Assembly: GCA_036504335.1 (NCBI GenBank)
Contig: DASXVJ010000029.1
Location: 26,885 to 90,884, forward strand
Length of the DNA: 64,000 bases
Origin: Thermoanaerobaculia bacterium
GTDB taxonomy: Bacteria > Acidobacteriota > Thermoanaerobaculia > UBA5066
Direction: 5' to 3'
Part shown: piece by piece, positions 307 through 51,475 of the stretch
Numbering within the stretch: the first letter of the stretch is position 1
How the letters are laid out: the number at the start of each line of letters is the position of its first letter
The notes under the pieces: generated by a model
Told to the model about the DNA's origin: nothing
The model's database searches: none
What the model saw: the letters and a program-made list of their open reading frames with translations, nothing else
Made by a program: the position numbers and the translations under genes

Positions 307-942
307 GTGGAGCGCTTTCTCGCCGACGGCCCGGCGCACGCGCCGCTCACGCTCGTTCTCGCTCACGGCGCGGGGGCGCCGATGGATTCGTCGTTCATGA
401 ACGCCGTCGCGGCGGGAATCGCGAAGGAGGGCTTCCGCGTCCTGCGGTTCGTGTTTCCCTACATGCGCGCCCGGCGCGATGTCGGACGGAAGAAGCCGCC
501 GGACCGCGGGCCGGTTCTGGAAGAGGCCTGGCGCGATGCGATCCGCGAGGCGGCGGGAAAGAAGGGAGCGAAGGCCGTCGTCATCGGCGGCAAGTCGATG
601 GGCGGCCGCATCGCGAGCATGGTCGCGGACGAGGCCGGCGTCGCGGGCCTCGTGTGTCTCGGGTACCCGTTCCACCCCCCGGGACAGCCGGACAAGCTGC
701 GCGTCGCGCACCTCGAGAAGCTCGAGACACGAACGCTGATCCTGCAGGGCGAGCGAGACGCTTTCGGGACGCGCGAAGAGGTCGCACGCTATTCACTTTC
801 AAAGAAGATCCGAATTCTCTTCCTCGAGGACGGCGACCACTCGTTCAAGCCGCGCGCGTCGTCCGGGCGCACCGAGAAGCAGAACCTGGACGAGGCGGTC
901 GCTCTCGTCAGCGAATTTCTCGGGTCTCTCCGATCCGCATGA
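307..942 (+). CDS. alpha/beta-fold hydrolase (dienelactone hydrolase/KANL3-like family)
   Basis: 211-aa ORF with HGAGAP...GGKSMGGRIAS nucleophile elbow and GDHSF motif. A repeat copy is embedded at 794-823. Confidence 0.6.
   Translation: MERFLADGPAHAPLTLVLAHGAGAPMDSSFMNAVAAGIAKEGFRVLRFVFPYMRARRDVGRKKPPDRGPVLEEAWRDAIREAAGKKGAKAVVIGGKSMGGRIASMVADEAGVAGLVCLGYPFHPPGQPDKLRVAHLEKLETRTLILQGERDAFGTREEVARYSLSKKIRILFLEDGDHSFKPRASSGRTEKQNLDEAVALVSEFLGSLRSA
794..823 (-). repeat. Repeat-family copy R1 (core on minus strand), in-frame in the hydrolase gene
   Basis: revcomp GGAAGAGAATTCGGATCTTCTTTGAAAGTG. Encodes SLSKKIRILF. Confidence 0.5.
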
Positions 943-1741
943 CCCAGGCGCGGTCGTCCGGATAGCCCGCCTGAAGCGCCGCGGCGCGGAACCGCACGGG
1001 GGGCTCGAACGGCGGCTCGTCGGTCAGGACGATCGTGCCCCAGTGCATCGCGACGAGCGTCGAGGCTTTGAGGTCGCGGCCGGCGGCGACGGCTTCCTCC
1101 GGGTTCAGGTGGACGGGCCGCATGATCGACGCGGGCTCGTACGCCCCGATCGGCAGGAGCGCGGCGTCGAACGGGCCGTGCGTCCGGCCGAGTTCGGCGA
1201 AGACGGGCCCGTATCCCGTGTCGCCCGCGAAGTAGAGAGCCCGCGTCGGAGAAGCGATCTTCCACGAGCACCAGAGGGTCTCGTTCCGGTCGAAGGGCGT
1301 GCGGCCGGAGAAGTGGATGCTGGGGAGGCAGGAAAGGGAGAGCGAGGAGGAAGAAGGAGAGGAAGAGGAAGATTTGCTTAGAAAGGTGCCCTCTCCCCAT
1401 CCAAGCTCTCGGACATCCGGGAAACCGCGGCGCTCGAAGAAGCCGCGCAGGCCGCGGGGAACGACCGCCGCCGCCTTCCCTCTTACCTTCAAAGAAATCT
1501 TCTCTACAGACGGTCCGTCGAGGTGGTCGTAGTGGTTGTGCGACAGAAGGACGACGTCGATGTCGGGCAACTCTTCGATCGCGAGCCCCGGCGGGACGTA
1601 GCGCTTCGGGCCGAGGCCCGCGATCGGGCTCGCGTAGTCCGAGAGGAACGGGTCGGTCAGGATCGTGAAGCCGCCCGTCCGGATGAGGAAGCACGCATGG
1701 CCGAGCCAGGTCAGGCTCTCGGGGCCAGCGGCGAGGAGCAT
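908..1741 (-). CDS. MBL-fold metal-dependent hydrolase (UPF0173-like)
   Basis: WLGHACFLI...LLSHNHYDHLD motifs. The ORF track extends it to 1882, but ATG 1741 (MLLAAGPESLTWLGHACF) matches the family N-terminus. It contains two in-frame repeat copies (1474-1507, 1331-1398) giving VEKISLKVRGK and [18 protein letters not shown] inserts. Confidence 0.6.
   Translation of the reverse strand: MLLAAGPESLTWLGHACFLIRTGGFTILTDPFLSDYASPIAGLGPKRYVPPGLAIEELPDIDVVLLSHNHYDHLDGPSVEKISLKVRGKAAAVVPRGLRGFFERRGFPDVRELGWGEGTFLSKSSSSSPSSSSLSLSCLPSIHFSGRTPFDRNETLWCSWKIASPTRALYFAGDTGYGPVFAELGRTHGPFDAALLPIGAYEPASIMRPVHLNPEEAVAAGRDLKASTLVAMHWGTIVLTDEPPFEPPVRFRAAALQAGYPDDRAWVMRIGETREIR
1331..1398 (+). repeat. Repeat-family copy F1 in the MBL gene
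   Basis: GGAAAGGGAGAGCGAGGAGGAAGAAGGAGAGGAAGAGGAAGATTTGCTTAGAAAGGTG. Confidence 0.7.
1474..1507 (-). repeat. Repeat-family copy R2 in the MBL gene
   Basis: revcomp GTAGAGAAGATTTCTTTGAAGGTAAGAGGGAAGG. Confidence 0.65.
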
Positions 1742-1923
1742 CGCCCTCGCCTCCGCGGGCGGGACGACGTGGCCTGCGGGAACGGCCGGCGGCCCGTCGG
1801 CCGCGCGGCGGAGGAAGAACGGGAGAAAGTCCGATGGACCTGCGGTCTGGGGCGGGCTGCCCGGCGGGTTCCGAAAACGCACGCGGCAGGATACCGGCCC
1901 GCGCGCGGGTTAGCATCCGGTCC

Positions 1924-3018
1924 GTGCGACGGGTTCTCGCGGCCGCTCTCCTCGCGGCGTCGTCCTTTGCCTCCGCAGCGCCGGAAGCGTTCGACGAAAA
2001 GGCCGCCGGCCGATTCGCCGGCCTTGCGCTCGCGTGCGTTTCGAAGGAGTACCCGAGCAAGATCGCGCATGTGATGAACGGCGACGAGGACGCGAAGCCT
2101 CCGCACGCCCTGACGCCGGCCTTCTACGGCTGCTACGACTGGCACTCGGCCGTGCACGGCCACTGGCTCCTCGCGCGGCTCGCGCGGACGTTTCCGGCGG
2201 CCCCGTTCGCGCCGCGCGCGCGCGCCGCGCTCAGGGCGTCGTTCACGCCGGAGAAGGTCGCGGGCGAGGTCGCGTATCTCGCCGCTCCCGGGCGCGCGAC
2301 GTTCGAACGGCCGTACGGGCTCGCCTGGCTCCTGCAGCTCTCGGCGGAGTTGCGCGGCTGGGACGACCCCGAGGCAAAGACCTGGGCGAAGACGCTCGAG
2401 CCCCTCGAGCGCTCCGCCGTGCGGAGGCTCGCGGACTGGATCCCGAAGCTCGCGTATCCGATCCGCGAGGGCGAGCACGCGCAGACCGCGTTCGCGTTCG
2501 GACTCGTCCTCGACTGGTCGCGCGCGTCGGGCGACGCGGCCATGGAACGCCTTCTCTCCGCCCGCGTCCGGGACCTCTACGCAAAGGACCGGGCTTGCCC
2601 GATCGGGTACGAGCCGTCGGGGCAGGACTTCCTCTCGCCCTGCCTCGCGGAAGCGGACCTCATGCGCCGCCTCCTCGCGCCGCCCGCGTTCGCGGGCTGG
2701 CTGCTCGGCTTCCTGCCGGGCGTTCCGGGCGACGGGGGCGCCGCCTGGCTGCCCGTCGGGACCGTCACGGATCCGACGGACGGGAAGCTGGCCCACCTCG
2801 ACGGCCTGAACCTCTCCCGCGCCTGGATGCTCGACGGAATCATGTCGGGGCTCCCGCCGAAGGACGGCCGCCTGCCGGCCCTCAAGGCCGCGCACGACGC
2901 CCACGCCGCCGCCGGGCTCGCCGCCGTGACCGGCGCCCACTACGAGGGCGGCCACTGGCTCGGGACGTTCGCCGCCTACCTCGCGACGCGCCGCGGGATC
3001 GCGGGAGACGCGCCGTGA
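1924..3018 (+). CDS. DUF2891 family secreted protein
   Basis: Signal peptide MRRVLAAALLAASSFASA from a GTG start at 1924 (ORF track start 1834 lacks a signal peptide). It has the YGCYDWHSAVHGHWLL motif typical of DUF2891. Confidence 0.5.
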   Translation: MRRVLAAALLAASSFASAAPEAFDEKAAGRFAGLALACVSKEYPSKIAHVMNGDEDAKPPHALTPAFYGCYDWHSAVHGHWLLARLARTFPAAPFAPRARAALRASFTPEKVAGEVAYLAAPGRATFERPYGLAWLLQLSAELRGWDDPEAKTWAKTLEPLERSAVRRLADWIPKLAYPIREGEHAQTAFAFGLVLDWSRASGDAAMERLLSARVRDLYAKDRACPIGYEPSGQDFLSPCLAEADLMRRLLAPPAFAGWLLGFLPGVPGDGGAAWLPVGTVTDPTDGKLAHLDGLNLSRAWMLDGIMSGLPPKDGRLPALKAAHDAHAAAGLAAVTGAHYEGGHWLGTFAAYLATRRGIAGDAP

Positions 3019-3773
3019 CCGCCGCCACGTTCGCGCTCCTCTTCGGCTCGGCCGTCGGAGCCGGGATCATGAACGCGCTCGCCGGCGGCGGGACGCTCCT
3101 CACCTTCCCGGCCCTCCTCCTTGCGGGCGTGCCCGCCATCCGCGCGAACGCGACGTCGACCGTGGCGCTCGTGCCCGGAGCCGCCGCGAGCCTCGCCGGA
3201 TACCGCCGCGAGGTGGGCGCGCACTCGCGCTGGCTCACGACGCTCCTCATCCCGAGCCTTCTCGGAGGCGGGATCGGCTCCGTGCTCCTCCTCATGACGC
3301 CGGAAAAGATCTTCGAGCGCCTCGCCCCGTGGCTCGTACTGTTTGCGACGCTGCTTTTCCTTTTCCAGATCCTCTGGGCGCGCCGCCGCCCGGGGACCCA
3401 GGCGCCGGAGCCGTCCTCGTGGGCCCTCGCGTCGGTCGCCCAGTTCTTCGCGGCGATCTATGGCGGCTACTTCGGGGCGGGGGTCGGGATCGTCATGCTC
3501 GTGATCCTCGGGGGCCTCGGCCTCACCGACATTCACGCGATGAACGGGCTCAAGAACTTCTTCGGGATCTGCATCAACAGCGTCGCGGCCCTGTATTTCA
3601 TCGTCCGCGGCGCCGTGGACTGGCCGCTCGCCCTGCTCATGACGGCGGGCGCCGTCCTCGGGGGGTTCATCGGCGCGAACTTCGCGCGCCGGATCGGCAA
3701 GGACAAGGCCCGCGTCGCGGTCGTCGCGATCGGACTCGGAATCACCGTCGTACTCTTCCTGCAACGTCACTGA
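3015..3773 (+). CDS. TauE/SafE (DUF81) family sulfite/anion exporter, membrane protein
   Basis: GTG start overlaps the upstream stop (GTGA). Two-repeat 4+4 TM architecture with a Gly-rich TM core (GGGIGSVLLL, GAGVGIVML). Confidence 0.7.
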   Translation: MTAATFALLFGSAVGAGIMNALAGGGTLLTFPALLLAGVPAIRANATSTVALVPGAAASLAGYRREVGAHSRWLTTLLIPSLLGGGIGSVLLLMTPEKIFERLAPWLVLFATLLFLFQILWARRRPGTQAPEPSSWALASVAQFFAAIYGGYFGAGVGIVMLVILGGLGLTDIHAMNGLKNFFGICINSVAALYFIVRGAVDWPLALLMTAGAVLGGFIGANFARRIGKDKARVAVVAIGLGITVVLFLQRH

Positions 3774-3812
3774 GCACGCGCCGGGAGACGCCCGGCACGA
3801 AAGGAGACACAC

Positions 3813-4238
3813 ATGCCGGCACGCACTGCCAGCGCCGTCTGGACCGGAGACCTGAAGAGCGGAAAGGGCACGATGAAGTTCGGGGGCGGCGCCTGGGAAG
3901 GCGCCTACTCGTTCCAGTCGCGCTTCGAGGAGGGAGCCGGGACGAATCCCGAGGAGCTCGCGGCCGCCGCCCACTCGGGCTGCTTTTCGATGGCGTTCGC
4001 GAACGAGCTTTCCAAGGCGGGCTTCGTCCCGACGCGCGTCGCGACGACCGCAAAGGTCCACCTCGAGAAGGGCGAGGCGGGCTTCTCGATCACCCGGATC
4101 GATCTCGCCTGCGAGGCGCAGGTCCCCGGGATCGACGACGCGAAGTTCCAGGAGCTGGGGGCGGCGGCCAAGAAGGGCTGTCCGATCTCGAAGCTCTTCA
4201 CGGGCGCGCAGATCAACCTGGAGGCGAAACTGGTCTAG
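3813..4238 (+). CDS. osmC: OsmC family peroxiredoxin / organic hydroperoxide resistance protein
   Basis: 141 aa with WTGDLKSGKG...GTNPEELAAAAHSGCF...ACEAQVPG, the OsmC hallmark including both conserved Cys. Confidence 0.8.
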   Translation: MPARTASAVWTGDLKSGKGTMKFGGGAWEGAYSFQSRFEEGAGTNPEELAAAAHSGCFSMAFANELSKAGFVPTRVATTAKVHLEKGEAGFSITRIDLACEAQVPGIDDAKFQELGAAAKKGCPISKLFTGAQINLEAKLV

Positions 4239-4267
4239 GTCTGAGGCGAAGATCGCCGCTTCGCGGC

Positions 4268-4328
4268 GAGGAAGAAGATTTTCTTAGAAGGTGAAGAGGG
4301 GGAGGGCGAAACAGCCCGCCCCCTCTTC
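4268..4328 (+). terminator. Repeat-family copy F2 plus GC hairpin (GAAGAGGGGGAGGGCG-loop-GCCCGCCCCCTCTTC) downstream of osmC
   Basis: Perfect 15-bp inverted repeat immediately after the core GAAGATTTTCTTAGAAGGTGAAGAGGG. There is no U-tract. Confidence 0.5.
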
Positions 4329-4368
4329 GCGTATACGGGGACAAATCCCAGGAAAGCAGGAGGCCTCA

Positions 4369-5001
4369 ATGATGAAACCGCGCCGCAGCATTCTTACTTT
4401 CAAAGCAATTCTTCTTCTTTCTCTTCCTCTTTTCCTCTGTCCCGCCGCGTTCGCCGACGACAAGCCCGCGGCGGCTGCCGCCGCCGCCCCAAGCCAGGAC
4501 GAGATGATGAAGGCCTGGATGGCCCAGGCGACGCCCGGCCCGACGCACAAGGCGCTGGAAGCCGCCGTCGGCTCGTGGGACGTGAAGACGAAGATGTGGA
4601 TGGCGCCGGGCGCCCCGCCCGCCGAGTCCGCCGGCGCGTCCGAGAACAGGATGATCCTCGGCGGCCGCTTCCTCGAGCAGCGGTACGAGGGGACGATGAT
4701 GGGTCAGCCGTTCAGCGGAATCGGGGTCACGGGCTACGACAACTACAAGAAGAAAGTCGTGGCGACCTGGATCGACTCGATGTCGACGTCCGTCATGGTC
4801 ATGCAGGGCACGGCGGACAAGACCGGAAAGGTCATCACGTGCTTCGGCGCGATGGACGACGTGGTCGCGAAGAGGCCGATGAAGGTGAAGTCCCGGGTCA
4901 CGTTCGTGGACGCGGACCACCACACGTACGAGTCCTGGCACACCCTTCCCGACGGCAAATGGTCGCAGGACCTCGAAATCGCCTACACGCGGAAGAAGTA
5001 G
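4369..5001 (+). CDS. DUF1579 family secreted protein
   Basis: ATG with GGAAAGCAGGAGG SD. Signal peptide MMKPRRSILTFKAILLLSLPLFLCPAAFA, whose h-region is encoded by repeat copy R3 (4389-4438). Confidence 0.55.
   Translation: MMKPRRSILTFKAILLLSLPLFLCPAAFADDKPAAAAAAAPSQDEMMKAWMAQATPGPTHKALEAAVGSWDVKTKMWMAPGAPPAESAGASENRMILGGRFLEQRYEGTMMGQPFSGIGVTGYDNYKKKVVATWIDSMSTSVMVMQGTADKTGKVITCFGAMDDVVAKRPMKVKSRVTFVDADHHTYESWHTLPDGKWSQDLEIAYTRKK
4389..4438 (-). repeat. Repeat-family copy R3, encoding the signal peptide of the DUF1579 protein
   Basis: revcomp AGAGGAAAAGAGGAAGAGAAAGAAGAAGAATTGCTTTGAAAGTAAGAATG. Confidence 0.65.
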
Positions 5002-5002
5002 C

Positions 5003-6620
5003 TCAGAGACTCTTCAGCGCCTCGAGCGCGGGCTCGAGCGCCTGGCGTCGCCTGAAGAAGTCGGCCCACGGGTCGCGCTTCTTCAGGCGCGCCGCGAAGT
5101 TCCCGATCGTGAAGTCCTCGGCGCGGAGGGACGGCACGACCTCGCTCCAGGCGAGCGGCGTCGAGACGGGCGCGTGGGGGCGCCGCCGGACGGAGTAGGG
5201 CGAGACGACGGTCTGGCCGAACGCGTTCCGGAAGGAGTCGAGGAAGACGCGCCCCTTCCGCGCCGCGATCCGCATCTCCATCGTGAGGTCCTTCGGCCAG
5301 GCCGCCGCGAGGCGCGTCCCGAGCGTCTTCGCGAACCAGGTGACCTCCTCGGTGCCCGGGCCGCGGACGATCGGCACGAAGACGTGGAGCCCCTTGCCGC
5401 CGGACGTCTTCACGTACGAGACGAGCTCGAGGGCGTCGAGCGCCTGCTTCACCTTCAGAGCGGCGCCCACGGCGTCCGTGATGAGGCCCGAGTCCGGGTC
5501 GAGGTCGAAACAGACCCAGTCGGGCCTGTCGAGCTCGTCGGCGCGGCTGCCCCAGACGTGCGTCGCGATGCAGCCGAGGTTCGCGAGCGCGAGCTGCGTC
5601 TCGAGCTTCCCGCCCACGACCGTGTTCGTCACCTTGCGGTCCTTGCCGTGGCGCACGACGACGGTCGGCGTGCCGGGCGGCAGGCTGGCGGGCTTCTCCT
5701 TCTGGTAGAAGCACTCGCCGCCGAGGCCGTCCGGGCAGCGCTCGAGCGAGAGCGGCCGGTCCTCGACCCACGGGCGCAGCTTGTCGAAGACGCCCGCGTA
5801 GAACGCGACGAGGTCGCCCTTCGTCCACCCCTCCTCGGGCCAGAAGACCTTGTCCGGGTTGGAGACGGGGACGGGGAAGGAAGACGAAGAATTCTTGGAA
5901 GGTGAGGAGGGGAGAGGCGCACCCCGGGGGCGTGAATGCCAGACGGCGGGGGACTCCTTTTGCTTTCGCTGAAGCAGCTTCGGATTCTTCAGCAGCTTCT
6001 CGACCTCGGCGACGGGGTCGCCCGTGGAAGCCTTCTCGACGTCGCCGCCTTCGTCGATGGCAATCTGCGTGAGCAGCCGGTTCGATACGACGGACCGCGG
6101 GCGCGTCTCGGCGACGTCCTCGTCCGAGGCGAAGTCGTCGCGGTGCTTGATGAGGAGCCACGAAGGCTTCGACGAGCCGCCCCATCCCTTCGTGCGGACC
6201 AGCACCCACGAGCCCTTCAGCTTCTCGCCGTGGAGCGTGAACTTCAGGTCGCCCTTCTTCAACGCCGCGTCCACGTCGGGCGACTCCGGCGCCCACGTGC
6301 CGCGGTCCCAGACCATCACCGTGCCGCCGCCGTACTCCGCGGCCGGGATGATTCCCTCGAACGCCGCGTACTCGATCGGGTGGTCTTCGACGTGAGACGC
6401 CATCCGCTTGACGGCCGGGTCGAGCGAGGGGCCCTTCGGAATCGCCCACGAAAGCAGGACGCCGTTCCATTCCAGCCGGAAGTCGTAGTGGAGGGCCGTC
6501 GCCCTGTGCTTCTGGACGACGTAGGCGAGGCCTTTTCCGCTCCTCTTCGGCGCCTTCGCGCCGGCAGGCTCGGGGGTGACGTCGAAGCGGCGTTTCTTCC
6601 GGTATTCCTCGAGAGGCATC
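5003..6620 (-). CDS. ligD: Non-homologous end-joining protein LigD, phosphoesterase (PE) + polymerase/primase (Pol) domains only; no ATP-ligase domain
   Basis: HYDFRLEWNGVLLSWAIPKGPS (PE domain). CFDLDPD...SGGKGLHVFVP...FLDSFRNAFGQTVVSPYSVR (LigD Pol). The ORF-track 1140-aa ORF is real only from ATG 6620 (538 aa). Repeat copy F3 (5875-5917) sits in the PE-Pol linker (PSSPSKNSSSSFPVPV). Confidence 0.75.
5875..5917 (+). repeat. Repeat-family copy F3 in the ligD linker
   Basis: GGAAGGAAGACGAAGAATTCTTGGAAGGTGAGGAGGGGAGAGG. Confidence 0.6.
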
Positions 6621-6757
6621 GGAGGAACGATACGGGGAACCCGGCCCGGCCGCCAGATTCGCCGCTTCTGCGTGCTAGCATCGACCGCTCTCCGGACGGT
6701 CGCGACCCCGGGACGTGGCTTGCTCGGGAGCCATTGGAGGAGGCGCACGGCGGGGCG

Positions 6758-9300
6758 ATGGACGACACCCAGCATCCTATCGATCCGGATGTGAAGGAAG
6801 CGCTCCTCGAGCTTCAGTGCTACCTGTCCGACAGCCTCGCGCCTCTCATGGTGGCCGAGTCGATCAACCTGCTCCTCGACCAGCCCGCTGCGATCGCTGC
6901 GACCGAGGTGCAGGCGTGGACGATCGCGCAGTTCCGGGGACGGGGCCAGAACGTGCCGATCTCGGACTACCTCTACCACGCCGTCGAGAAGCTCCACGCG
7001 ATGGGGCAGTACGAGCTCGTGCCGCGCGATCCGCTGCGCCGCTTCCTCCAGGACCTCTCCCAGCAGCTTCTGGCGTTCTGCCCCCCGGCCGACCGGGAAA
7101 TGCTCCGTCAGAATCTGGGCCGGTTGGGCCAGGCGGAGAGCGTCCTCGCGGCCCCGGTCGAGATGCTGCACCGGCAGGGAACGACCGCCGACGCGCCTTC
7201 CGCCGCCAAGCGCGCGTCCGGCGAGCACGGCGTGCCGCTGTCGTCTCAGACGGTCTCCGACCTCCGGCACCTCTCGATGCTCCTCGAGCGCCTCGGCCCC
7301 CTCCAGGCGCTGCCCCCGTCGGAGGCCGCTCTCTTCGGCGCCGCGGCGGCCCCCGGGAGCCAGGCGCCGGCCCCCGGAGGCGGTTCGCCCGCGGCCTTCG
7401 GGGCCATGATCCAGTCCCCGCGGGAAGCGCTCGTGGCCCAGGTCCTCGCGGTCGCCGCGATCGCGGCCCGGTCGGACGGGGAGCTCGCTCAGGCGCTGGA
7501 GCGCCTGCGCGCCGCCGGGGTGGACGTGCCGTCCGGCGAGGTCATCCGGACCCTGGGCCGGTCGATCCCGCCGTGGCCTCTCTCCCTTCCGTCCGAGCCC
7601 GTCGAGGAGGCGCTGTCGTCCGCGCGCGCCTCCGCGACGCAGGCCATTCGCCGCGTCGTCACCCTTCCCAAGGACCAGGAGGAGGTCGGGAAGCGCTTCC
7701 ACGAGATGGTGGCCGCGGCCGTCGAGCAGCTGAACCAGGGCTCGCTGACGCGGGCCTCGCGGATGTTCGACGTCGCCGAGAAGCTCGTCGTCGAGAACAA
7801 GGTCAGCCCTCTCTCGCTCGAGGCCACGCGGAAAAAAGCCCAGGATTCGGTGGACCTCGAGCGCGTCCGCAGTCTCGGCGAGGACGCGCGGAACCAGCAG
7901 CCTCTCGCGAGAATCCTCTCGTTCTTCCCGGGGCTCTCGGTCGGGACGCTCATCCAGGAGCTGCACGTCGAGGAGAAACGGGAACGCCGCCGCCTCCTCC
8001 TCTCCCTCCTCGAGATTTACGGCCCCGAGGCGCGCGCGGCGTCGCTCGACGTTCTCCGCCAGCTCGCCGCCGTCGGCGCCCCCGAACAGGATTGGCACTT
8101 CAAGCGGAACCTCCTCTACCTTCTCCGCAAGACGCCGCGGCCGGCGGATCAGACGCCGGACGCGGAGATGGACGCCGTCATCCCGTTCGCCGACCCTTCG
8201 CTCCCGCCGCCGATCGTCAAGGAGGCGATCGCGGGCCTCGCGGCGATCAAGCACGAGCGCTCCGAGGCGGTGCTCGTCACCCTCGTGCAGGGCCTCGAGG
8301 CGATGCTCGCGAAGAAGGGCGACGCCCCGTTCGACGAGGCCGAGCTCCAGCCGCTCCTCGACCGGGCGGTCTCGGCGCTCGCGCGATTCGGAAGCCCGAC
8401 CGCGCGGCGCGTCGTCGTCGAGCACGGGCTGAAGAGGAAGAGCGGCCTCGGCGACGTCGGCGCCCGGCTGGCCGAGCTCGCGAGCCAGGACCTCACGGAC
8501 GACCCGGAGCTCGTGAGCCTCCTCCTCAAGAGCGCGCGGGCCGAGATGCCCTTCAAGGTGTTCGGCCTCACGCTGAAGAAGCGCGAGGACCGGCTCGCTC
8601 CGATCGTCGAGGCGCTGTCCGGCACCCCCTCACCGGGCGTCCGGAAGGTGTTCGAGGAGATCGTCGAGAAGCACGCGGACACGCCTGCCGCCAGGGCGGC
8701 GTCGCGCGCTCTCGCGGCGTTCGACGCGCCGAAGGCCGCGGAGGAAGGGCAGGCGAGCCTCATGGGCGACCTCGCGATCTTCGAGCTGCCTGCTCTCCTC
8801 CAGAGCCTCGCCTCCACGGAAGTGACGGGCGCGCTGTCGCTGCGCGACACGGGCGGTTCCGTGGTCGGGAAGTTCCTCCTCGAAAACGGCAGGATCCGGT
8901 CCGCCGAAGCGTTCGGGCTGAAGGGCGACGACGCCTGCTTCCAGCTGTTCGAGCGCCCCACCGGCGGCACGTTCTCGTTCGTGCGCCAGCCGGCGCTGCC
9001 TCCCCTCCGCGAGGGCGAGAGCCTGCGCGAGGTCGTCTCGATCCTTCTCGAGGGAATGAGGCGCTACGACGACTTCCAGCGCTTCTCGGCGCTCGTTCCC
9101 GACGACCTCGTGCTCGCGCCGACGGGGACGAAGCCGTCGACGGAGCCGGAAGAGGCGGACGGCGCGCTCCAGAAGGCCGTGTGGACGAAGGCGTCCGGCG
9201 GGGCGACCCCGAAAGCAATCGAGTCGGCGGTGGCCGCCGACTCGTACCGGATCCGGAGATTGCTCGTCAGGTGGGTGGAAGAGGGGAGCCTGAAGGCCGC

Positions 9301-9304
<4 letters not shown>
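6758..9304 (+). CDS. Large alpha-helical protein with C-terminal DUF4388 (PATAN-like) domain
   Basis: ATG 6758 with GGAGGAGG SD. C-terminus [27 protein letters not shown]...[10 protein letters not shown] matches DUF4388. 5936-6757 of the track ORF is non-coding or antisense. Confidence 0.5.
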
Positions 9305-11309
<2,005 letters not shown>

Positions 11310-11411: not shown

Positions 11412-12572
11412 TCAGTAGTAGAAGAGCTGGACCTGGACGGTGTACTGGTTCGTCGTCGCGGTGTTCGGATCGTTCGGGAGCTGCTTGCGCGTCCAGCCGC
11501 CCTTGAAGTTGAAGTTCGCGCCGTACGGGTACCAGCCGAGGCCGAGCTGGAGGAAGTTCTTGTTCAGCGAGTCGCAGCCGGCCGCCGGGCACCCCGCCGT
11601 GCCGTTCTTGTACATCTGGGTTTCGTAGCGGGCGAACGGCATGAGCTTGATGTCGCCGCCGGTGTAGAAGCCGGCCTCGGCGAAGACGACGTCCTGCTTG
11701 AAGAGCGCGGCCGTCGGGAACGTCACGCCGCCGTCGTAGTGAATGTAGTCGACCTGCGCCGTGACGCCGCCCTTCCCGACGGGATAGTCGAAGAAGACGT
11801 CGCCGGCGTAGGCCGAGTAGTCGCTCTGGGTGTCGTAGCTCGCGCCGAACGCGAGGATCTTCTTCTTGCCGAGGTACGTGCCCGGGTAGAACTGAACCTT
11901 CTCGACGTCGAACACGTTGTACTGGACGCGTCCCGTGAACCGGAACGAGTTCTTCACGCCGGGGGCGCGGAAGCCCGAGTAGACGCCCGCGCGGTACTCG
12001 AGGTGATCGCCCGCGAAGTAGCCCTTGGCCTGGAAGCCCGTGTCGCGGCCGATGGAGGACTGGGTCGACGCGCTCTCCTGGAAGGACCACGTCCCGTAGT
12101 CCATCGACAGGAGCGTCGCCGCGCTCGAGTTGCAGTTGCGGCAGAGCGGGATGAGGATGAGGCCGCCCTGGATGTGGAATTCGTTCGAGATGCCCCAGTC
12201 GAGGTAGGCGTCCTGGACGATGAACCCGGTGCCGGGCGCCTTGCCGCCGGCGCCGCCCGCCACCGTCTGCGTGGACTTCCCGAGGTTCGGGTTGTCCGTC
12301 ATGAAGAAGAACGTGACGTCCTTCGCCACCTGCCCGCCGAGGAAGAATCGGGCTCGCCGCAGGAAGAGGTTCTGCTGGAAGCCGGCCTGGTTCCCGGCCG
12401 CGTCCGACTGGCCGTTCCAGTCCGCCCATCCCTGCAGCAGGATGCCGAGGCGGAAGTTCACGTTGTCGTTGACCTTGATGATCGCCTGGGCGCTGGCGAG
12501 ACCGGGCAGCAACGCCACGACGACGGCCAGGGCGACGAGAGCCACGCGAGCGGAAAGGATCCTTGAACGCAC
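11412..12572 (-). CDS. Outer-membrane porin (phosphate-selective porin O/P-like beta-barrel)
   Basis: Signal peptide [21 protein letters not shown] after GTG 12572 with TAAGGAGGAAGG SD. Alternating beta-strand pattern and aromatic C-terminal residue (…QLFYY). Confidence 0.5.
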
Positions 12573-12925
12573 ACCTTCCTCCTTACACGTCAGCACGCCG
12601 AAAGAGCGGCACGAACGGAAGCGCATCAATGTGAAAACGATAAACACCCAGTGGATTCCACGTCAACTGGAATCTCTGTCGAGACACGATCTCTTTTCGG
12701 GCCCCGGAGCGCCTCGATTGCGTTAACACCGCCTCCGGTTTCCGCTTGACATCCCGGAGGACTCTGAAAGACTTCCGCTAGATTTTTCGACGAATCGGGG
12801 AGGCAACGTCCGCGCGGGCTCGACGGAGCGGCGGAGTGATATCAGCGGAACTCCCGCGCACCGTGCGGGGCTTTCCATCGGGCTAAGTTCAATCGGCCAA
12901 AGGCCGTATGACAGGGAGGAATTGG

Positions 12926-14542: not shown

Positions 14543-14616
14543 AGAGAGACAAAGCGAAAGAGTTTCTTAGAAAGTATTGCGGGCCGGGGGATTCTTCTCC
14601 CGGCCCTTTTTCATTG
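14531..14616 (+). terminator. Repeat-family copy F4 + rho-independent terminator (GGGCCGGGGG-ATTCTTCT-CCCGGCCC-TTTTTCATT)
   Basis: Starts at the MFS stop codon: polypurine tract, core GAGTTTCTTAGAAAGT, then GC hairpin and T-tract. Confidence 0.7.
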
Positions 14617-14657: not shown

Positions 14658-15860
14658 GTGCCCGCTGAAAGCACGATCCGCCCGTCAGCCTTTCTAAGGA
14701 ATTTTCTTCGGTCCGAAGCTCTCTCTGGAATCCTCCTCCTCGCCGCCGCGGTCGCCGCGATCGCCCTCGCGAACTCGCCTCTCAAGGACGCGTACGCCCA
14801 CGCCACGCACCTTCCCCTCCGGTTCGGCGACGGTTCGTGGCGCGTGGACACGACGCTCCTCCATGCGACCAACGACGGGTTGATGGCCGTCTTCTTCCTC
14901 GTCGTCGGGCTCGAGATCAAGCGAGAGTTCCTGACGGGAGAGCTTGCCGGGAAGGGCGCCGCGATTCTCCCCGTGGCGGCCGCGTGCGGGGGAGCGGCCG
15001 TCCCCGCGGCGATCTACGCCGCGTTCAACGCCGGGACGCCCGCGGCGCACGGATGGGGCATCCCGATGGCGACGGACATCGCGTTCGCCGTGGGCGTCCT
15101 CGCGCTCCTCGGCCGGCACGTGGCGCCCGTGTTCAAGGTCTTCCTCACCGCCGTGGCGGTCGTCGACGACCTGATCGCGGTTCTCGTGATCGCCTTCTTC
15201 TACACGTCGGGGCTGAACCTCGGCGCGCTCGCCGTCGTGGCCGGCGCGTGCGCGGTCCTCTACGCGTTCAACCGGGCGGGCGTCCAGTCCCTCGCCCCGT
15301 ACCTCCTCGTCGGAGCCGTCCTCTGGGCCGCCATGGCGCGGTCCGGCGTCCACGCGACGATCGCGGGCGTCCTGCTCGGCATGAGCGTTCCCGCGACGGG
15401 CGCGCAGACATCGCCCCTCCGCCGGCTGGAGCACGCTCTCCACCCCTGGGTCGCGTGGGGGATCATGCCGGTCTTCGCCCTCGCGAACGCGGGCGTGACG
15501 GTGCCGGCGGGGCAGGTTGGAGCGATGCTCACGTCGCCGATCGCGCTCGGAATCGTCGTCGGGCTCTTCTTTGGAAAGCAGGTCGGGATTTTCGGGACGA
15601 CGTTCCTGCTGGCACGGCTCGGCGTCGGCACGGTTCCCGCGGACGCCCGGGGACGGCGTTCTCTCTGGGGCGTCGCGCTGCTCGGCGGGATCGGGTTCAC
15701 GATGTCGCTCTTCGTGAGCGGACTCGCGTTCCATGGAGAAGCGATGACGGACGTTTCCAAGGCCGCGATCCTCGCGGGCTCGTTGATGTCGGGTCTCGCC
15801 GGCGCGGCCGTTCTCGCGAGCGTCCCCGAGCCGGTGGCGGGAGACGCGGACGCCGGTTAG
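14658..15860 (+). CDS. nhaA: Na+/H+ antiporter NhaA
   Basis: FLRSEALSGILLLAAAVAAIALANSP N-terminus, GIPMATDIAFAVGVLALLG (the NhaA DxAF motif region) and VDDLIAV. The N-terminal TM1 codons (14676-14740) are a reverse-orientation repeat patch. Confidence 0.8.
   Translation: MPAESTIRPSAFLRNFLRSEALSGILLLAAAVAAIALANSPLKDAYAHATHLPLRFGDGSWRVDTTLLHATNDGLMAVFFLVVGLEIKREFLTGELAGKGAAILPVAAACGGAAVPAAIYAAFNAGTPAAHGWGIPMATDIAFAVGVLALLGRHVAPVFKVFLTAVAVVDDLIAVLVIAFFYTSGLNLGALAVVAGACAVLYAFNRAGVQSLAPYLLVGAVLWAAMARSGVHATIAGVLLGMSVPATGAQTSPLRRLEHALHPWVAWGIMPVFALANAGVTVPAGQVGAMLTSPIALGIVVGLFFGKQVGIFGTTFLLARLGVGTVPADARGRRSLWGVALLGGIGFTMSLFVSGLAFHGEAMTDVSKAAILAGSLMSGLAGAAVLASVPEPVAGDADAG
14676..14740 (-). repeat. 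Repeat-family copy R9, in-place patch in nhaA TM1
   Basis: revcomp GAGGAGGAGGATTCCAGAGAGAGCTTCGGACCGAAGAAAATTCCTTAGAAAGGCTGACGGGCGG. Confidence 0.55.
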
Positions 15861-17826: not shown

Positions 17827-17898
17827 GAGAAGAAAAGACTTCTTAGAAGGTCAAGAGGGCGGCCGGTCGCGCGGAATCGCGGCCGGCCGTTTTCATTC
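17808..17898 (+). terminator. Repeat-family copy F5 + bidirectional terminator hairpin (CGGCCGGTCGCG-CGGAAT-CGCGGCCGGCCG) + TTTTCATT
   Basis: Lies between the convergent ALDH (stop 17826) and aminotransferase (stop 17893). Core GACTTCTTAGAAGGTCAAGAGGG. Confidence 0.65.
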
Positions 17899-29201: not shown

Positions 29202-29623
29202 CTTCCGGCGCGGGCGCCCCCGGCGCTCCGCTGTCGATCCTGGTCGTCCTCCCGTCGCCACCGCAGCGCCTCCTCGCCGTCGCCGCGGTGCGCGCGGCCC
29301 TGCAGCCGTGGGGACGAACGGTGGTGGCTGCCGAAGCCGGCTCGGCGTTCGAGGCGCTCTGCCTCGTGGCCCGCGGGCGGCCCGCCCTCGCGCTCGTCGC
29401 ACTGGACCTGCCGGTCCTTTCCGGCGACGAGCTCGTGGCCCTCCTGCGCGCTCACCCGGAGCACCGCGGTCTTCCGGTCGTCGCCGTGGCCCCGGGCTCG
29501 GACGCCGACGCCGTTGCGAGGTCCGCGGCGGCGGGCGTGGTCGCGCTGCTGCGCACGCCGTTCGATCCCGCTGCCGTCGCCGCCTCGCTGGCAGCCGCCG
29601 GTCTTGCCGGGAGCCAGCCGTGA
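29198..29623 (+). CDS. Single-domain response-regulator receiver (CheY-like)
   Basis: TTGA overlap. LSILVVLPSP...ALVALDLPVLSGDELV...VVAVAPG receiver fold with the phospho-Asp in ALDL. Confidence 0.55.
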   Translation: MTSGAGAPGAPLSILVVLPSPPQRLLAVAAVRAALQPWGRTVVAAEAGSAFEALCLVARGRPALALVALDLPVLSGDELVALLRAHPEHRGLPVVAVAPGSDADAVARSAAAGVVALLRTPFDPAAVAASLAAAGLAGSQP

Positions 29624-32600: not shown

Positions 32601-32652
32601 CCTCGCCTACCGGACGGCGGGCGCGGTCGTTTACACTCGCGCGCTCTCATGA
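29620..32652 (+). CDS. HEAT/PBS-lyase repeat protein fused to C-terminal CheR-type SAM-dependent methyltransferase domain
   Basis: GTGA overlap. ~18 HEAT-like repeats ([26 protein letters not shown], ...). C-terminus [21 protein letters not shown]...[12 protein letters not shown] matches the CheR MTase fold. Confidence 0.6.
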
Positions 32653-35123: not shown

Positions 35124-35173
35124 GAGACGATAGAAAAGACCGAAGAGAAGATTCTTCGAGTGGTCGCGGGCGA
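35123..35173 (+). repeat. Repeat-family copy F10 at the leuS stop
   Basis: GAGAGACGATAGAAAAGACCGAAGAGAAGATTCTTCGAGTGGTCGCGGGCG. Confidence 0.55.
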
Positions 35174-35734
35174 ACGCTGCCCGGAGCGCGCCGGCTGCGC
35201 CGCGCCTCCGGCTCTTCATCATTCAAAGAATTCTCTCTCTTCTTTCTCGTTCTCTTCGTCTTCGGCTGCGGTTATTCGCTCGTGGGCACCGGCGCGAGCG
35301 CGCTTCCCCCGAACGTCAAGACGGTCTGGGTGCCGACGTTCATCAACGACACGACGGTCGTGAGCGCCGAGCAGAAGCTCACTGACGCGGTCCTGCGGGA
35401 GCTGTCGGCGCGCGGACGCCTGAAACCGGTTCGGGAACGCTCCCAGGCGGATGCGGAGCTGAACGGACGCCTGACGTCGCTGAGCCTCACGCCGGTCCGC
35501 TTCGACGACGCGGGTCTCGCGGTCGAGTACCAGCTGACGATCACGGCGAACCTCTCCCTCGCCGAGAAGTCGACGGAGAAGATTCTGTTCAAGGAGCCGT
35601 CGTTCGTGTTCCGCCAGCCGTACAACGTGCCGGGGAGCTCGAAGTCGTACTACGACCGCGAGCGGGAAGCGATCGAGGCCCTGGCGCGGCCGTTCGCCCA
35701 GAGCCTCGTCACGACCATCCTGGAAGGGTTCTAG
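35162..35734 (+). CDS. lptE: LPS-assembly lipoprotein LptE (start codon unresolved)
   Basis: Conserved leuS-lptE neighbourhood. Lipobox LFVFGCGY. LptE-like body (TVWVPTFINDTT...YQLTITANLSL). No ATG/GTG/TTG lies between the leuS stop and the signal peptide. The signal-peptide h-region is encoded by repeat copy R7. Confidence 0.5.
   Translation, partial: GRGRTLPGARRLRRASGSSSFKEFSLFFLVLFVFGCGYSLVGTGASALPPNVKTVWVPTFINDTTVVSAEQKLTDAVLRELSARGRLKPVRERSQADAELNGRLTSLSLTPVRFDDAGLAVEYQLTITANLSLAEKSTEKILFKEPSFVFRQPYNVPGSSKSYYDREREAIEALARPFAQSLVTTILEGF
35221..35262 (-). repeat. Repeat-family copy R7, encoding the lptE signal-peptide h-region
   Basis: revcomp GAAGACGAAGAGAACGAGAAAGAAGAGAGAGAATTCTTTGAAT. 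Confidence 0.6.
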
Positions 35735-46672: not shown

Positions 46673-46695
46673 CGCCCCCCAAGTAACATTCCCGC

Positions 46696-49012: not shown

Positions 49013-49029
49013 GGCGCGCGGCCGCCTGC

Positions 49030-49473: not shown

Positions 49474-50668
49474 GTATCGCAGAATAGCCGACGTGTCCGC
49501 AAGGGTGCTGTTCGCCGGAAACGGATGGGGATTGGGGGACGAGGGAGAAGAGAAGATTTTCTTTGAAGGTGAAGAAAAGAGGGTGCGCGCCGATACGGTG
49601 GAACAGCTGCCCTCGGTCCTCGAGGCCCTGGATTCCGTCGCCTCGAGCGGCGACCCGAACCTCCTCGCTGCGGGATTCGTCTCTTACGAGGCGGGCGTCT
49701 GGATCGAAGGCTCGACCGCGCTCGTCAGGGAGCATGAATTTCTTCCCTTCGCAGAATTCTTCATCTTCAATACCCGCAGTTCTTTCGTCTCCCGCCGAGC
49801 CCCGCCGCCTCCCGCTGCTTTCCCCTCTTTCACACTCGAAGAACGGGCGAGCGCGCAGCGCTCGCTCTCTTCGGACGAGTGGGTGCGCGGCGTCGGCGCC
49901 ATCCGAGACGGAATCGCGCGGGGGGACGTCTACCAGGTCAACCTGTCGTACCGCACGCGTTTCGCGGCGCGCGTCGATCCGTTCGCGCTCGCCCGCGAGC
50001 TGCACGCGAAGAGCCCGGTGCCTTACGCCGTGACGCTCGCCTCGAAAGACTGGGCCGTCGTCTCGAATTCGCCCGAGCTGTTCCTGGACCTCGACCTCCG
50101 CGAGGGGCGGGCCGTCACGAAGCCGATCAAGGGCACGGCGCCGAGGGGCGACTCGGTCGAGTCCGATGCGGCGGCCGGCGCACGGCTCGTCGCCTCCGCG
50201 AAGGACCGCGCCGAGAACGTCATGATCACGGACCTCCTGCGCAACGACCTCGGGCGCGTCGCGGTCCCGGGGGGCGTCGCGACGACCGCTCTCGCCGGGC
50301 TCCGCACGTTCGCGCACCTCCACCATCTCGAGTCCACCGTCGAGGCGCGGCTCGCGCCCGGCACGCGGCTCTCCGACGTTCTCCGGGCCACGCTCCCCGG
50401 GGGCTCGATCACGGGCGCTCCGAAGCGCGCCGCCCTCGGCTTCATCCGGCGCCTGGAGCCGGTCGCGCGGGGCGCGTACACGGGCGCCGCCGGGTTCGTC
50501 CGAGGCGACGGGAGGGCCGTCTTCAACGTGGCGATCCGGACGGCGATCACCGGCCGGGATAGAGTCGACTATCACGCGGGGGGTGGAATCGTGTGGGACT
50601 CGAACGCCGGTGCGGAATGGGCCGAGACGCTGACCAAGTCGCGCGAGATGGAGGCGTTCCTTGCCTGA
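49472..50668 (+). CDS. pabB: Aminodeoxychorismate synthase component I / chorismate-binding enzyme (PabB/TrpE family)
   Basis: DRAENVMITDLLRNDLGRV...PGGSITGAPKRAA...GAAGF...AGGGIVWDS motifs. Start uncertain: ATG 49472 overlaps the divergent thioesterase ATG; alternative GTG 49583, directly after repeat copy F12. Confidence 0.65.
   Translation: MYRRIADVSARVLFAGNGWGLGDEGEEKIFFEGEEKRVRADTVEQLPSVLEALDSVASSGDPNLLAAGFVSYEAGVWIEGSTALVREHEFLPFAEFFIFNTRSSFVSRRAPPPPAAFPSFTLEERASAQRSLSSDEWVRGVGAIRDGIARGDVYQVNLSYRTRFAARVDPFALARELHAKSPVPYAVTLASKDWAVVSNSPELFLDLDLREGRAVTKPIKGTAPRGDSVESDAAAGARLVASAKDRAENVMITDLLRNDLGRVAVPGGVATTALAGLRTFAHLHHLESTVEARLAPGTRLSDVLRATLPGGSITGAPKRAALGFIRRLEPVARGAYTGAAGFVRGDGRAVFNVAIRTAITGRDRVDYHAGGGIVWDSNAGAEWAETLTKSREMEAFLA
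49541..49589 (+). repeat. Repeat-family copy F12 upstream of / inside the pabB 5' end
   Basis: GAGGGAGAAGAGAAGATTTTCTTTGAAGGTGAAGAAAAGAGGGTGCGCG. Confidence 0.65.
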
Positions 50669-51449
50669 ATTCGCGCCCCTGCCGTACCATTCGCCCGCGG
50701 TCCAGCGGGGCTTCGGCTTCTTCGAGACGGCGCTCCTCGTGGGCCGCAGGGCCGTCCTCTGGGACGCCCATCTCGACCGGCTCCTCAGGGGACTCGCGCA
50801 TCTCGACCTGCCGGCGCCTCCGCGCGAGGCGCTCGACGCCGCCGCCCGCGCCGCCCTCGACGTCCGCGCGCCCCGCGGCGACGAACAGTCCGGCATGCGC
50901 CTCACGTGGCTGGCGCTGGGGGAGGACGTCGACGCGGCGGCCTCCTGGAGGCTGGACTGTTATGTGCTCCCGATTCCCGAGAGCCGCCTCGTGCGCCGCA
51001 ACGGCTCGCATGCGGTGTCGCTGCCCATCGACCTGCAGCGCGACACGCCCGGCGTGAAGTCCACGAGCTACTTCGCGGCGATCCAGGGCGGCCGGCTCGC
51101 GAAGAAGGCCGGCGCCGACGAGGGCCTGTTCCGCGGCCACGACGGGCGTTATCTCGAAGGGACCACGACCGGGCTCGCGGCGTGGAACGGGGGCACGCCC
51201 GTTCTCGCGCCCGAGGGCGTCCTGCCCAGCGTCACCGCCGCCGCGTTCTTCGAGGGGCAGGCCGCCGTCTCACCGATCGGCGAGGAGCACCTCCGCGCGG
51301 GCGCCGTCCTGCTCGGCTCCCTCACGACGGCGGCGCCCCTGCTGTCGCTGGACGGGAGGCCCTGCGCGCAGCCTCCGGAAATGCTCGCGCGGATCCGAGC
51401 CTTCAGGGAGAGGCTGATCTCCGACCCGTCTCTCTCACGGCCTCTCTGA
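50661..51449 (+). CDS. pabC: Aminodeoxychorismate lyase / class IV aminotransferase fold
   Basis: Adjacent to pabB. FGFFETALLVGRRAV...GLFRGHDGRYLEGTTTGL. Confidence 0.65.
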   Translation: MPEFAPLPYHSPAVQRGFGFFETALLVGRRAVLWDAHLDRLLRGLAHLDLPAPPREALDAAARAALDVRAPRGDEQSGMRLTWLALGEDVDAAASWRLDCYVLPIPESRLVRRNGSHAVSLPIDLQRDTPGVKSTSYFAAIQGGRLAKKAGADEGLFRGHDGRYLEGTTTGLAAWNGGTPVLAPEGVLPSVTAAAFFEGQAAVSPIGEEHLRAGAVLLGSLTTAAPLLSLDGRPCAQPPEMLARIRAFRERLISDPSLSRPL

Positions 51450-51475
51450 GGGGACTATATTCACCTTCAAATGGC
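51441..51475 (-). repeat. Repeat-family copy R8 (truncated) between pabC and the reductase gene
   Basis: revcomp GCCATTTGAAGGTGAATATAGTCCCCTCAGAGAGG. Confidence 0.35.

Follow-up and report, generated by a model that had tools for sequence, protein, structure and literature searches.

The 64,000-nucleotide stretch analysed here (the window; positions 26,885–90,884 of contig DASXVJ010000029.1, assembly GCA_036504335.1, from an uncultured Thermoanaerobaculia bacterium) contains a recurrent AT- and purine-rich motif that is not explained by chance and is confined to one clade of this class. The copies of the motif, called arms, stand mostly in convergent pairs around spacers of native host sequence, and the comparison of orthologues shows that their cores were built by substitution on pre-adapted ancestral sequence, followed by expansion of the flanks. 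The element is best read, albeit with modest confidence, as a lineage-specific paired recognition site that would be read at the DNA level by a putative clade-specific protein.

A recurrent low-GC motif confined to one clade of Thermoanaerobaculia

The GC content of the window is ~70%, and an initial annotation of this DNA had described a dispersed low-GC motif whose recurrence it judged to be beyond compositional chance. This was borne out when the 12-mer TTTCTTAGAAGG was searched with up to two mismatches: 15 matches (1 exact, 6 with one mismatch and 8 with two) were found in 64 kb, compared with 0.78 expected from dinucleotide shuffles of the whole window. When shuffling was confined to the 52 low-GC islands of the window (stretches of ≤42% GC), only 0.09 matches were expected, with a maximum of 2, and therefore local AT or purine richness does not account for the motif. 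A profile was built on ten copies and then iterated, and matches were ranked by nhmmer bit score. The first profile gave 12 window matches at ≥10 bits and none in ~1.3 Mb from 80 other genomes, including several similarly GC-rich Thermoanaerobaculia loci; these genomes served as negative controls and not as orthologues, the IleRS relatives among the matches listed being at most 61% identical. A permissive pass of the profile built on ten copies yielded 36 candidate arms, and the iterated model gave 16 window matches at ≥7 bits. The tally for 64 kb stands at 16 firm arms and about 12–15 weaker ones.

The core consensus GAgAggATTTCTTaGAAGGtgAaagGGG is ~28 nt long and carries ~35 bits as estimated from copies independent of the search pattern. 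It is asymmetric, is centred on the short palindrome TTTCTnAGAAA and has one purine-rich strand, the purine richness spanning about −27 to +22 relative to the TTTCTT island. A generic inverted-repeat finder missed the arms because its output was dominated by GC-rich chance pairs. The literature was searched for the clade and the motif sequence as well as for palindromic elements in frame and for repetitive extragenic palindromic (REP) sequences with their doublets (REPINs); it yielded no described element with this consensus and no such element in Acidobacteriota, and Rfam and tRNA scans detected nothing at the arms, RNase P RNA being the sole Rfam family in the window. The consensus thus appears to be undescribed, as had been stated before.

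The core is not tied to one frame or strand: it was found in three reading frames, on either strand, and also outside coding sequence. This bears on the suggestion that arms are a by-product of composition and coding, arising from AT- or purine-rich codon islands such as Glu/Lys runs, signal peptides and reduced structure near starts. Many arms do coincide with protein features of this kind, those of the pyrimidine side with Leu/Phe/Ser-rich signal peptides or the starts of transmembrane segments and those of the purine side with Glu/Lys/Arg runs. However, the independence of frame, strand and coding state counts against this explanation, and the island shuffles and the zero matches in 1.3 Mb of other genomes refute it; we attach practically no probability to it.

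IleRS places the window among uncultured Acidobacteriota of the class Thermoanaerobaculia. The range of the motif was followed through the syntenic loci of the relatives L001, L002 (from ERZ25039533:contig_12409), L003 (JAKOVQ01), L203, L204, L205 and L206 (GCA_008363385.1). Arms occur at 0.17–0.44 per kb in L001, L205, L204 and L002, the IleRS of which is 91, 83, 77 and 74% identical to that of the window, respectively. In L203 (GCA_044447885.1; IleRS 66%) there is one arm in 22 kb, and no arms were found in the syntenic loci of L206 and L003 (IleRS 62 and 61%). The motif therefore ranges over a single Thermoanaerobaculia clade of uncultured soil and sediment Acidobacteria with IleRS identity of at least about 74% to the window. 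More distant Thermoanaerobaculia showed no analogous recurrent motif, L003 being without any low-GC island, and a scan of viral contigs for the pattern gave 0 matches. When 19 orthologous sites in five genes were scored with a position weight matrix (PWM), those within the clade lay mostly between +10 and +34, apart from losses specific to a lineage; the L203 sites were mostly negative, and the L206 and L003 sites scored about −20 to +1. L203 (9189–12146 and neighbouring sequence) keeps the low-complexity insertions of IleRS, yet nearly all its arm sites score at background and its rare codons are unconserved; its arms are either eroding or at a stage that precedes their expansion. The distribution of arms is known from the 64-kb window, the syntenic loci and metagenome contigs, and extrapolation from the local density gives perhaps ~1000 copies per genome.

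Arms are organised in convergent pairs around native spacers

The convergent pairing of arms is the key feature of the element and was absent from the initial annotation. In a pair, a purine tract, a core and GGG are followed by the spacer and then by CCC, the inverted core and a pyrimidine tract, which places the purine tracts outermost. Neighbours no more than 400 nt apart were counted over the window, the loci of two relatives and ~100 metagenome contigs of high GC content; 58 were convergent (+/−) and 3 divergent (−/+). A convergent partner within 250 nt was present for 65–72% of 135 strong arms, compared with 1–7% in the divergent control. The centre-to-centre spacing ranges from 36 to 290 nt with a mode near 75, and neither a helical (10.5-nt) nor a codon (3-nt) periodicity was seen in it. 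The spacers are unrelated from locus to locus: the 58 interiors fall in 40 clusters, and the clusters resemble orthologous copies of the same loci. These results showed that the convergent pair is the unit and that its spacer is native host sequence. The purine tract, which had been described as a variable part of the architecture, turned out to be optional, with a median of 18 nt and a length of ≤6 nt in a quarter of the arms.

Among the 47 pairs lying away from contig ends, 28 are at gene boundaries and 19 (40%) are deep in a single open reading frame (ORF) that shows coding signal to either side of them. Three or four pairs are in ileS alone. By strand calls, three pairs lie between convergent genes and four between divergent genes, the rest being co-directional, and these numbers are about what the types of intergenic region would give. 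Terminator-like sites were not enriched (16 vs 10.8 ± 3.0, and 10 vs 8.4 ± 3.6), and a sigma-70 promoter scan showed no association either. An intrinsic, bidirectional terminator was rejected as the identity of the element on this lack of enrichment, on the 40% of pairs that are intragenic and on the finding that pair C is the sole pair enclosing a canonical terminator.

Arm cores were written in place on ancestral sequence

The origin of arms was traced by comparing genes of the clade with motif-free orthologues. In ileS (21423–24395, minus strand), the spacer and both cores of pair F align without gaps over ancestral residues (FFE[RK]V and DFLP) of motif-free IleRS, and only the flanks differ in length, with six additional residues in the purine flank and 0–14 serines in the pyrimidine flank, both clade-specific and in frame. 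The codons form a series. The left core reads TTC TTC GAG AAG GTG / GAC CGC GTC in L003/L206, GAG TTC TTC AAG AGC GTC in L203 and GAA GAT TTC TTT GAA AGG GTA AGA GGG in the motif clade, and the right core reads TTC CTC CCC, TCT TTC TTT CTC AGC and TCT TAC TTT CTA AGC AAA TCT, respectively. The cores of three rluD sites and of the right arm of mtnP (PSDAFVLGELGD changed to PSDSYFLGNLSS) likewise lie over ancestral codons, and the left arm of mtnP constitutes an N-terminal extension of 13–16 codons. The gap-free alignments, the codon series and the scores of orthologous sites together show that cores were built by substitution on pre-adapted ancestral sequence and that the flanks expanded afterwards. 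Within genes the tracts read as Glu/Lys/Arg runs or, from the other strand, as Ser/Leu/Phe runs. The poly-serine run of IleRS (22655–22720, codons ~570–585) is such a translated pyrimidine flank; it varies from 0 to 14 residues among close relatives and behaves like an in-frame microsatellite.

The repeat unit suggests slippage, in increments of 3 and 6 nt, as the mechanism of flank growth, by which genes would stay in frame. The in-frame position of arms inside genes, earlier taken as a hallmark of a miniature element or of a DNA-level site, would follow from this expansion together with the survival of intact genes and is no pointer to an insertion mechanism. The ends of the element are graded, and no target-site duplication was seen. 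The arms of LeuRS show turnover: the left arm is present in L001, L002 and L205, whereas the window is without the left arm and the spacer. The low-complexity spacer between the two arms is 22 aa long in L001 (~560–640) and 46 aa in L002, where leuS occupies 2452–5064 (−) and the insertion lies at codons ~372–420; the equivalent position in the window is 33760–33800, from which the left arm and the insertion have been lost.

The initial annotation had proposed a selfish miniature element inserting in frame in the manner of Rickettsia palindromic elements (RPEs). In its general form this explanation invokes a mobile repeat of the REPIN, RPE or miniature inverted-repeat transposable element (MITE) type, which would depend for its copying on a transposase or HUH enzyme whose gene is elsewhere in the genome and would enter genes in frame. 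The inverted-repeat architecture, the enrichment at gene boundaries (28/47 pairs), the presence or absence of the LeuRS left arm with its spacer and of the mtnP 5′ arm between close relatives, and the purine flanks, which are true insertions, are in its favour. On the other hand, the interiors are non-homologous between loci, the cores lie gap-free over ancestral residues with only the flanks inserted, the ends are fuzzy with no target-site duplication seen, and single arms are neither palindromic nor equipped with the GTAG/CGTC tags that REPs carry (PMC3733652). Furthermore, locus-specific arm variants were inherited vertically and not homogenised, viral contigs gave no matches, and Pfam detected no transposase or integrase in the window, the genes of which are ordinary housekeeping genes. 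A mobile repeat is therefore regarded as highly improbable.

Arms appear to be constrained individually at the nucleotide level

If arms are kept for their DNA sequence, this should be visible where the encoded protein leaves a choice. The AT-ending codons of the window were scored for retention at positions where the amino acid is identical in a relative. Such codons were kept at 18/20 positions in arms and 83/298 outside in the comparison with L002 (p = 4e-8), at 14/21 and 82/312 with L204 (p = 2e-4), and at 15/20 and 92/320 with L205 (p = 5e-5); overall, the retention of rare codons in these three relatives was 67–90% in arms vs 26–29% outside. In the comparison with motif-poor L203 it was 4/14 in arms and 56/247 outside, which is not significant. 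These comparisons show a constraint at the nucleotide level that extends across genera and has lapsed in a sister lineage. Variants specific to a locus are common to orthologues, for example TTTCATAGAA, by which rluD escapes a TAA stop, and the inheritance of arms is therefore vertical and not homogenised. TTTGAA or TTCGAG had earlier been stated to replace TTAGAA in coding copies, but this held only where the consensus would create a stop (TTC TAT GAA in rluD); coding arms retain TTAGAA if the frame permits, as in ileS (22689–22717) and in the MBL-fold (metallo-beta-lactamase) hydrolase arm at 1367.

Single arms barely fold, their energies of −1.7 to −2.2 kcal/mol being close to those of shuffled sequences. 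A pair with a short spacer forms a hairpin, and intergenic copies of this kind are near-perfect hairpins. Arm–arm stems form in the folds of pairs B, C, F, H and I, with z-scores of −2.8 to −4.9, and in several pairs of the window (B, C, G, H, I and 5876/5945) the arms enclose a start codon or the initial 20–60 codons of a gene. The folds of pairs and the enclosed starts speak for arms that pair in transcripts, forming a stem of 25–45 bp round the spacer that controls mRNA stability, RNase III-like processing or translation initiation. However, the tests for selection on base pairing gave no sign of it. Identity within pairs (0.69) did not exceed that between pairs (0.72; this null is somewhat inflated by arm ascertainment), wobble-compatible differences numbered 86 on the sense and 85 on the antisense strand and so reveal no sense-strand G·U preference, and the flank lengths of the two arms of a pair were uncorrelated (rho = −0.02). 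Pairs A, D, E and G folded no better than shuffles; no Rfam family matches the arms; and in pair C the terminator lies between the arms, so that one transcript would rarely carry both. The need for structure alone would also leave one shared sequence unexplained. An RNA-level hairpin is therefore considered unlikely. Each arm looks individually constrained towards one sequence with little sign of a required transcript context, and this favours DNA recognition over structured RNA. The suggestion of a DNA-level functional site or RNA motif made in the initial annotation was accordingly supported in its first part, by rare codons conserved across genera and by sites that score as arms in five relatives, and not in its second, the pairing tests giving no support for RNA structure.

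The anti-Shine-Dalgarno sequence is complementary to AGAAGGTGA of the arm at 8/9 positions, and the core presumably resembles a strong ribosome-binding site of the T7 gene 10 type. This function was rejected because it fails for copies that are antisense or far from start codons. Other candidates were dropped on grounds of spacing, frame, copy number or native spacer: eukaryote-like splice signals (GTAAGA...CTTAC...AG), sigma-54 and extracytoplasmic function (ECF) promoters, an RF2-type CUU UGA frameshift site, integration host factor (IHF) and CodY sites, boxA, H-DNA, G-quadruplexes, integron attC sites, invertons and Type III restriction site pairs.

A paired recognition site at the DNA level as the favoured reading

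The copies arise in place at ancestral sites, also in essential genes, and are then preserved, which is the behaviour of a signal and not of a jumping element. Ancestral core-like sequence (TTC TTC GAG for Phe-Phe-Glu; TTC CTx for Phe-Leu) is converted to the motif by point substitutions running against the 70% GC content and the codon bias, and (GAAGAG)n-like tracts then grow from the GAAGA edge of the core, probably by slippage in units of 3 and 6 nt. Sites once formed are held by nucleotide-level constraint across genera and erode where the force has lapsed. In the reading that we favour, this force would be recognition of the core by a putative clade-specific protein, which may bind both sites of a DNA duplex or a stem-loop formed while the DNA is briefly single-stranded, and the element would then work like REP and bacterial interspersed mosaic element (BIME) sequences, ParB/Noc-type sites or uptake-type genomic signals. 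The occurrence of pairs in convergent, divergent and co-directional settings, the 19/47 pairs deep in ORFs and the unfolded state of single arms were counted for the DNA level.

Several points weigh against a paired recognition site. We infer both the reader protein and its binding; the spacing shows no helical phasing, and in many pairs the distance of 36–80 bp is too short for a simple loop of duplex DNA. The demand on selection would be high, with perhaps 1000 sites of ~35 bits to be made and kept at a cost to essential proteins, and molecular drive would achieve this more easily. The pairing tests could have missed structure should coding needs account for most deviations from the consensus, and the distribution rests on single loci and contigs.

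Molecular drive without host function is the main rival, although we hold it to be somewhat unlikely. As envisaged for the uptake signal sequences (USS) of Haemophilus and the DNA uptake sequences (DUS) of Neisseria, uptake bias or biased gene conversion would fix motif-improving point mutations at proto-sites. The costly origin of the arms, with in-place substitution at ancestral codons and amino-acid changes forced on conserved enzymes, is explained very well by such a process, and those costly changes would argue for a force stronger than weak per-site selection. It also agrees with the presence of arms in both orientations and in coding and non-coding DNA at about one per 2–4 kb, with their restriction to one clade and with their erosion in some lineages. 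It does not predict, through uptake bias, that about two-thirds of the arms stand in convergent pairs with spacers of up to 290 nt; only a minority of USS are paired, and such pairs are tight terminator stems. Moreover, the copies are degenerate, with one exact 12-mer in 64 kb, and not thousands of exact cores.

The comparison with known systems places the favoured paired site near several of them, and the element differs from each of USS/DUS, REP/REPIN and RPE in at least one defining property. Like USS and DUS, it is clade-specific, occurs about once per 2–4 kb in both orientations in genes and intergenic DNA, originated in place by point mutation at compatible codons with peptides imposed on the proteins, and partly forms inverted pairs near gene ends. 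USS and DUS are single sites in which exact cores dominate, whereas the arms are mostly convergently paired across long unrelated spacers (65–72% of strong arms), are degenerate (the 1, 6 and 8 matches given above) and have an expandable purine microsatellite flank. To our knowledge, no uptake specificity has been reported in Acidobacteriota. The REP, BIME and REPIN sequences of Proteobacteria resemble the element in comprising hundreds to thousands of short repeats with inverted doublets able to form hairpins, in vertical inheritance and in long persistence; REPs are thought to be bound by gyrase, IHF or the REP-associated tyrosine transposase (RAYT). However, REPs are extragenic and each is an imperfect palindrome of 20–40 bp, whereas here 40% of the pairs are deep in ORFs and single arms are unfolded. 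A REPIN and its spacer are mobile together, as one unit (PMC3116915); in the arms the consensus is without the GTAG/CGTC tag, the spacers are native and the 64-kb window contains no RAYT or transposase.

RPEs share with the arms their location in frame in intact genes and at orthologous positions across related species. They are whole insertions of 100–150 bp, whereas here only the ~28-nt core is shared, it lies over ancestral codons, and the sequence between the arms is the gene's own, as in ileS pair F, where it is ancestral IleRS. Unlike MITEs, the element has no conserved interior (58 interiors, 40 clusters), no empty-site insertion and no target-site duplication. Chi, the FtsK- and SpoIIIE-recognised sequences (KOPS/SRS) and the cyanobacterial highly iterated palindrome HIP1 are likewise genome-wide, made by substitution, tolerated in coding DNA and lineage-specific, but they are single sites of 5–8 nt, with Chi and KOPS skewed with respect to replication, whereas the arms carry ~35 bits and are asymmetric and paired. 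The palindrome of the arm appears to resemble the TTTC...GAAA half-sites of ParB/Noc-type sites (parS and the Noc-binding site, NBS), which are dispersed on the chromosome. Those are even palindromes of 14–16 bp present in tens of copies, whereas the palindrome here is odd (9–11 bp), has asymmetric flanks and would be present in ~1000 copies by extrapolation.

There is a fair chance that the element proves to be a new class. We put forward tentatively that it represents an unrecognised class of genome-wide signal, in which a paired asymmetric ~28-nt motif is written by lineage-specific machinery into ancestral sequence chromosome-wide, reshaping essential genes, and is kept as two-site or stem-loop units; this machinery may serve DNA uptake or self-recognition, as a new system outside Proteobacteria, or may be a chromosome-organising binder with ~1000 sites. 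If the element is indeed an in-place genomic signal, a genome-wide sequence-specific force, be it DNA-signal selection or molecular drive, can prevail over strong GC pressure, over codon bias and over the conservation of proteins in an abundant, uncultured lineage of soil and sediment, and creates low-complexity inserts and amino-acid changes in IleRS, LeuRS, RluD and MtnP. The in-place genomic signals known from USS/DUS, Chi, KOPS and HIP1 would then extend to Acidobacteriota, with a new paired architecture. The motif-rich genomes, the eroding L203 and the motif-free L206 and L003 offer a comparative system in which to look for the reader protein and to separate selection from drive. The motif may also serve as a diagnostic marker for binning contigs of the clade, and it would explain odd low-complexity segments and doubtful start-codon calls in gene models of the clade.

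Arms and other features of the window

Of the 21 coordinates given in the initial annotation, 15 proved to be firm arms (4268, 17835, 49550, 22694, 1371, 5897, 14561, 19452, 25433, 794, 1474, 4389, 14676, 22764 and 33816), four were weak or marginal at 3–8 bits (35221, 7.6 bits; 34990, 7.0 bits; 23725, 6.3 bits; 21593, 3.2 bits) and two (35145 and 51441) were undetected by the profile. The arms at 25566–25601(−), 19601–19619(−), 21753–21779(−), 49743–49765(−), 19928–19956(−) and 23109–23131(+) and the degenerate partner at ~5945–5995(−) had not been listed. The genes said to bear the motif had included ligD, which Pfam does not find in the window.

The first arm of the window (792–810, −; 9.7–10.3 bits) has no recognisable partner and lies in an alpha/beta hydrolase gene (307–942, +; Pfam Abhydrolase_11). 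Pair A is in the MBL-fold hydrolase gene (908–1909, −; Pfam Lactamase_B_2), with the purine tract and core of its left arm at 1351–1392 (+) and a right arm at 1473–1515 (−; 21.8 bits) that codes SVEKISLKVRGK of the protein. The left arm of pair B (4265–4302, +; 19–21 bits) is the best copy of the window and begins just past the stop of an OsmC gene (4238); the right arm with its pyrimidine tract (4384–4441, −) codes the signal-peptide core of a DUF1579 protein, and the Shine-Dalgarno sequence and ATG (4345) of this gene sit between the arms. A further left arm (5876–5913, +; 15.5 bits) is upstream of a gene for a 1122-aa DUF4388 protein (ATG 5936), and its degenerate partner (5945–5995, −), in the first 20 codons of that gene, pairs with it in the fold but is below the profile threshold. 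This plus-strand DUF4388 gene (5936–9304) is shadowed by a minus-strand ORF at 5003–8425.

Pair C begins just past the stop (14542) of a major facilitator superfamily (MFS) transporter gene with a left arm (14545–14588, +; 19.2 bits) that abuts the terminator at 14581–14606, and its right arm (14678–14718, −; 10.6–17.6 bits) covers codons 8–20 of nhaA (14658–15860; gene call from L001). The arm at 17808–17863 (+; 22.4 bits) follows the stop of an aldehyde dehydrogenase gene and runs into a GC-rich hairpin; an orthologous arm is present in L001. Pair D is in rluD (19121–20128, −). Its left arm (19442–19484, +; 19.2 bits) is antisense to the gene and codes STFYEILSESSG, the site scoring 18–30 in five other relatives, and its right arm (19587–19632, −) codes MKERFLEKEY. 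An arm-like site in the S4 domain of rluD (19928–19956, −; KKTSEKVKKGD; 7.5 bits) scores 12–19 in six genomes and −12 in L206.

In ileS, pair E is weak, with a left arm near the 3′ end of the gene (21592–21621, +; 3.2 bits) and a right arm (21753–21793, −; 4.1 bits) whose PWM score reaches up to 18 in L204. The left arm of pair F (22655–22718, +) has a (GAAGAG)n tract of ~35 nt, the gene strand coding PPSYFLSK and the poly-Ser run, and the core of the right arm (22761–22811, −; 20 bits) is over the ancestral FFERV. The remaining ileS sites are arm-like at 23109–23131 (+; LLSQKSS), with a higher score in L002, weakly so at 23484–23504 (+; 2.9 bits; PWM 20 in L002) and at 23583–23621 (−), which is a good arm in L002, and a weak arm at 23719–23754 (−; PLREDSLNG; 6.3 bits), the PWM score of which is 13–20 in four of five clade genomes and 3.1 in L204. 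The left arm of pair G (25422–25460, +) is the N-terminal extension of mtnP described above (MRKEKKKISSSGGERG), and the right arm (25566–25604, −; 15 bits) is the one whose ancestral residues were changed.

The leuS arm at 33804–33839 (−; 19.1 bits) is the one whose left partner is present in L001, L002 and L205 and is deleted in the window, and a weak arm lies near the 3′ end of the gene (34986–35013, +; 7.0 bits; PWM 12–14 in relatives). Pair H spans the junction of leuS and lptE. Its weak left arm (35128–35163, +), at the leuS stop and lptE start, was recognised as a low-GC island and in the fold and is undetected by the profile; the right arm with its pyrimidine tract (35207–35263, −; 7.6 bits) codes the signal-peptide core of LptE (Pfam LptE) before the lipobox Cys. 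In this region (35120–35263), lptE apparently starts at a GTG overlapping the leuS stop, with an unusually long charged N-region of ~34 aa before the lipoprotein signal peptide; the whole N-terminal extension is made of arm pair H, and hence the true start codon is uncertain. The left arm of pair I (49539–49585, +; 15.9 bits) lies between divergent genes, immediately ahead of the GTG (49580) with which a gene for a chorismate-binding enzyme starts, and the right arm (49733–49786, −; EHEFLPFAEFFIF; 6.2 bits), seen in the fold, is ~55 codons into the same gene. Two marginal copies complete the series: a partial one at a gene junction (51447–51480, −), which consists of TTTGAAGGTGAATA only and is undetected by the profile, and one in uvrC (55898–55932, +; 3.3 bits), a two-mismatch match.

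Among the other features of the window, a very GC-rich block (28311–32652; 76–79%) without arms has genes for a response regulator and for a HEAT-repeat/CheR methyltransferase of 991 aa. Both the window and L001 have this block between leuS and a transglutaminase-like gene, where it is absent in L002, L204, L205 and L203. The ORFs at 11412–12647 (−) and 54280–55002 (−) have strong coding signal and no Pfam family. The RNase P RNA is of bacterial class A and full length (62823–63220, +; 268 bits).

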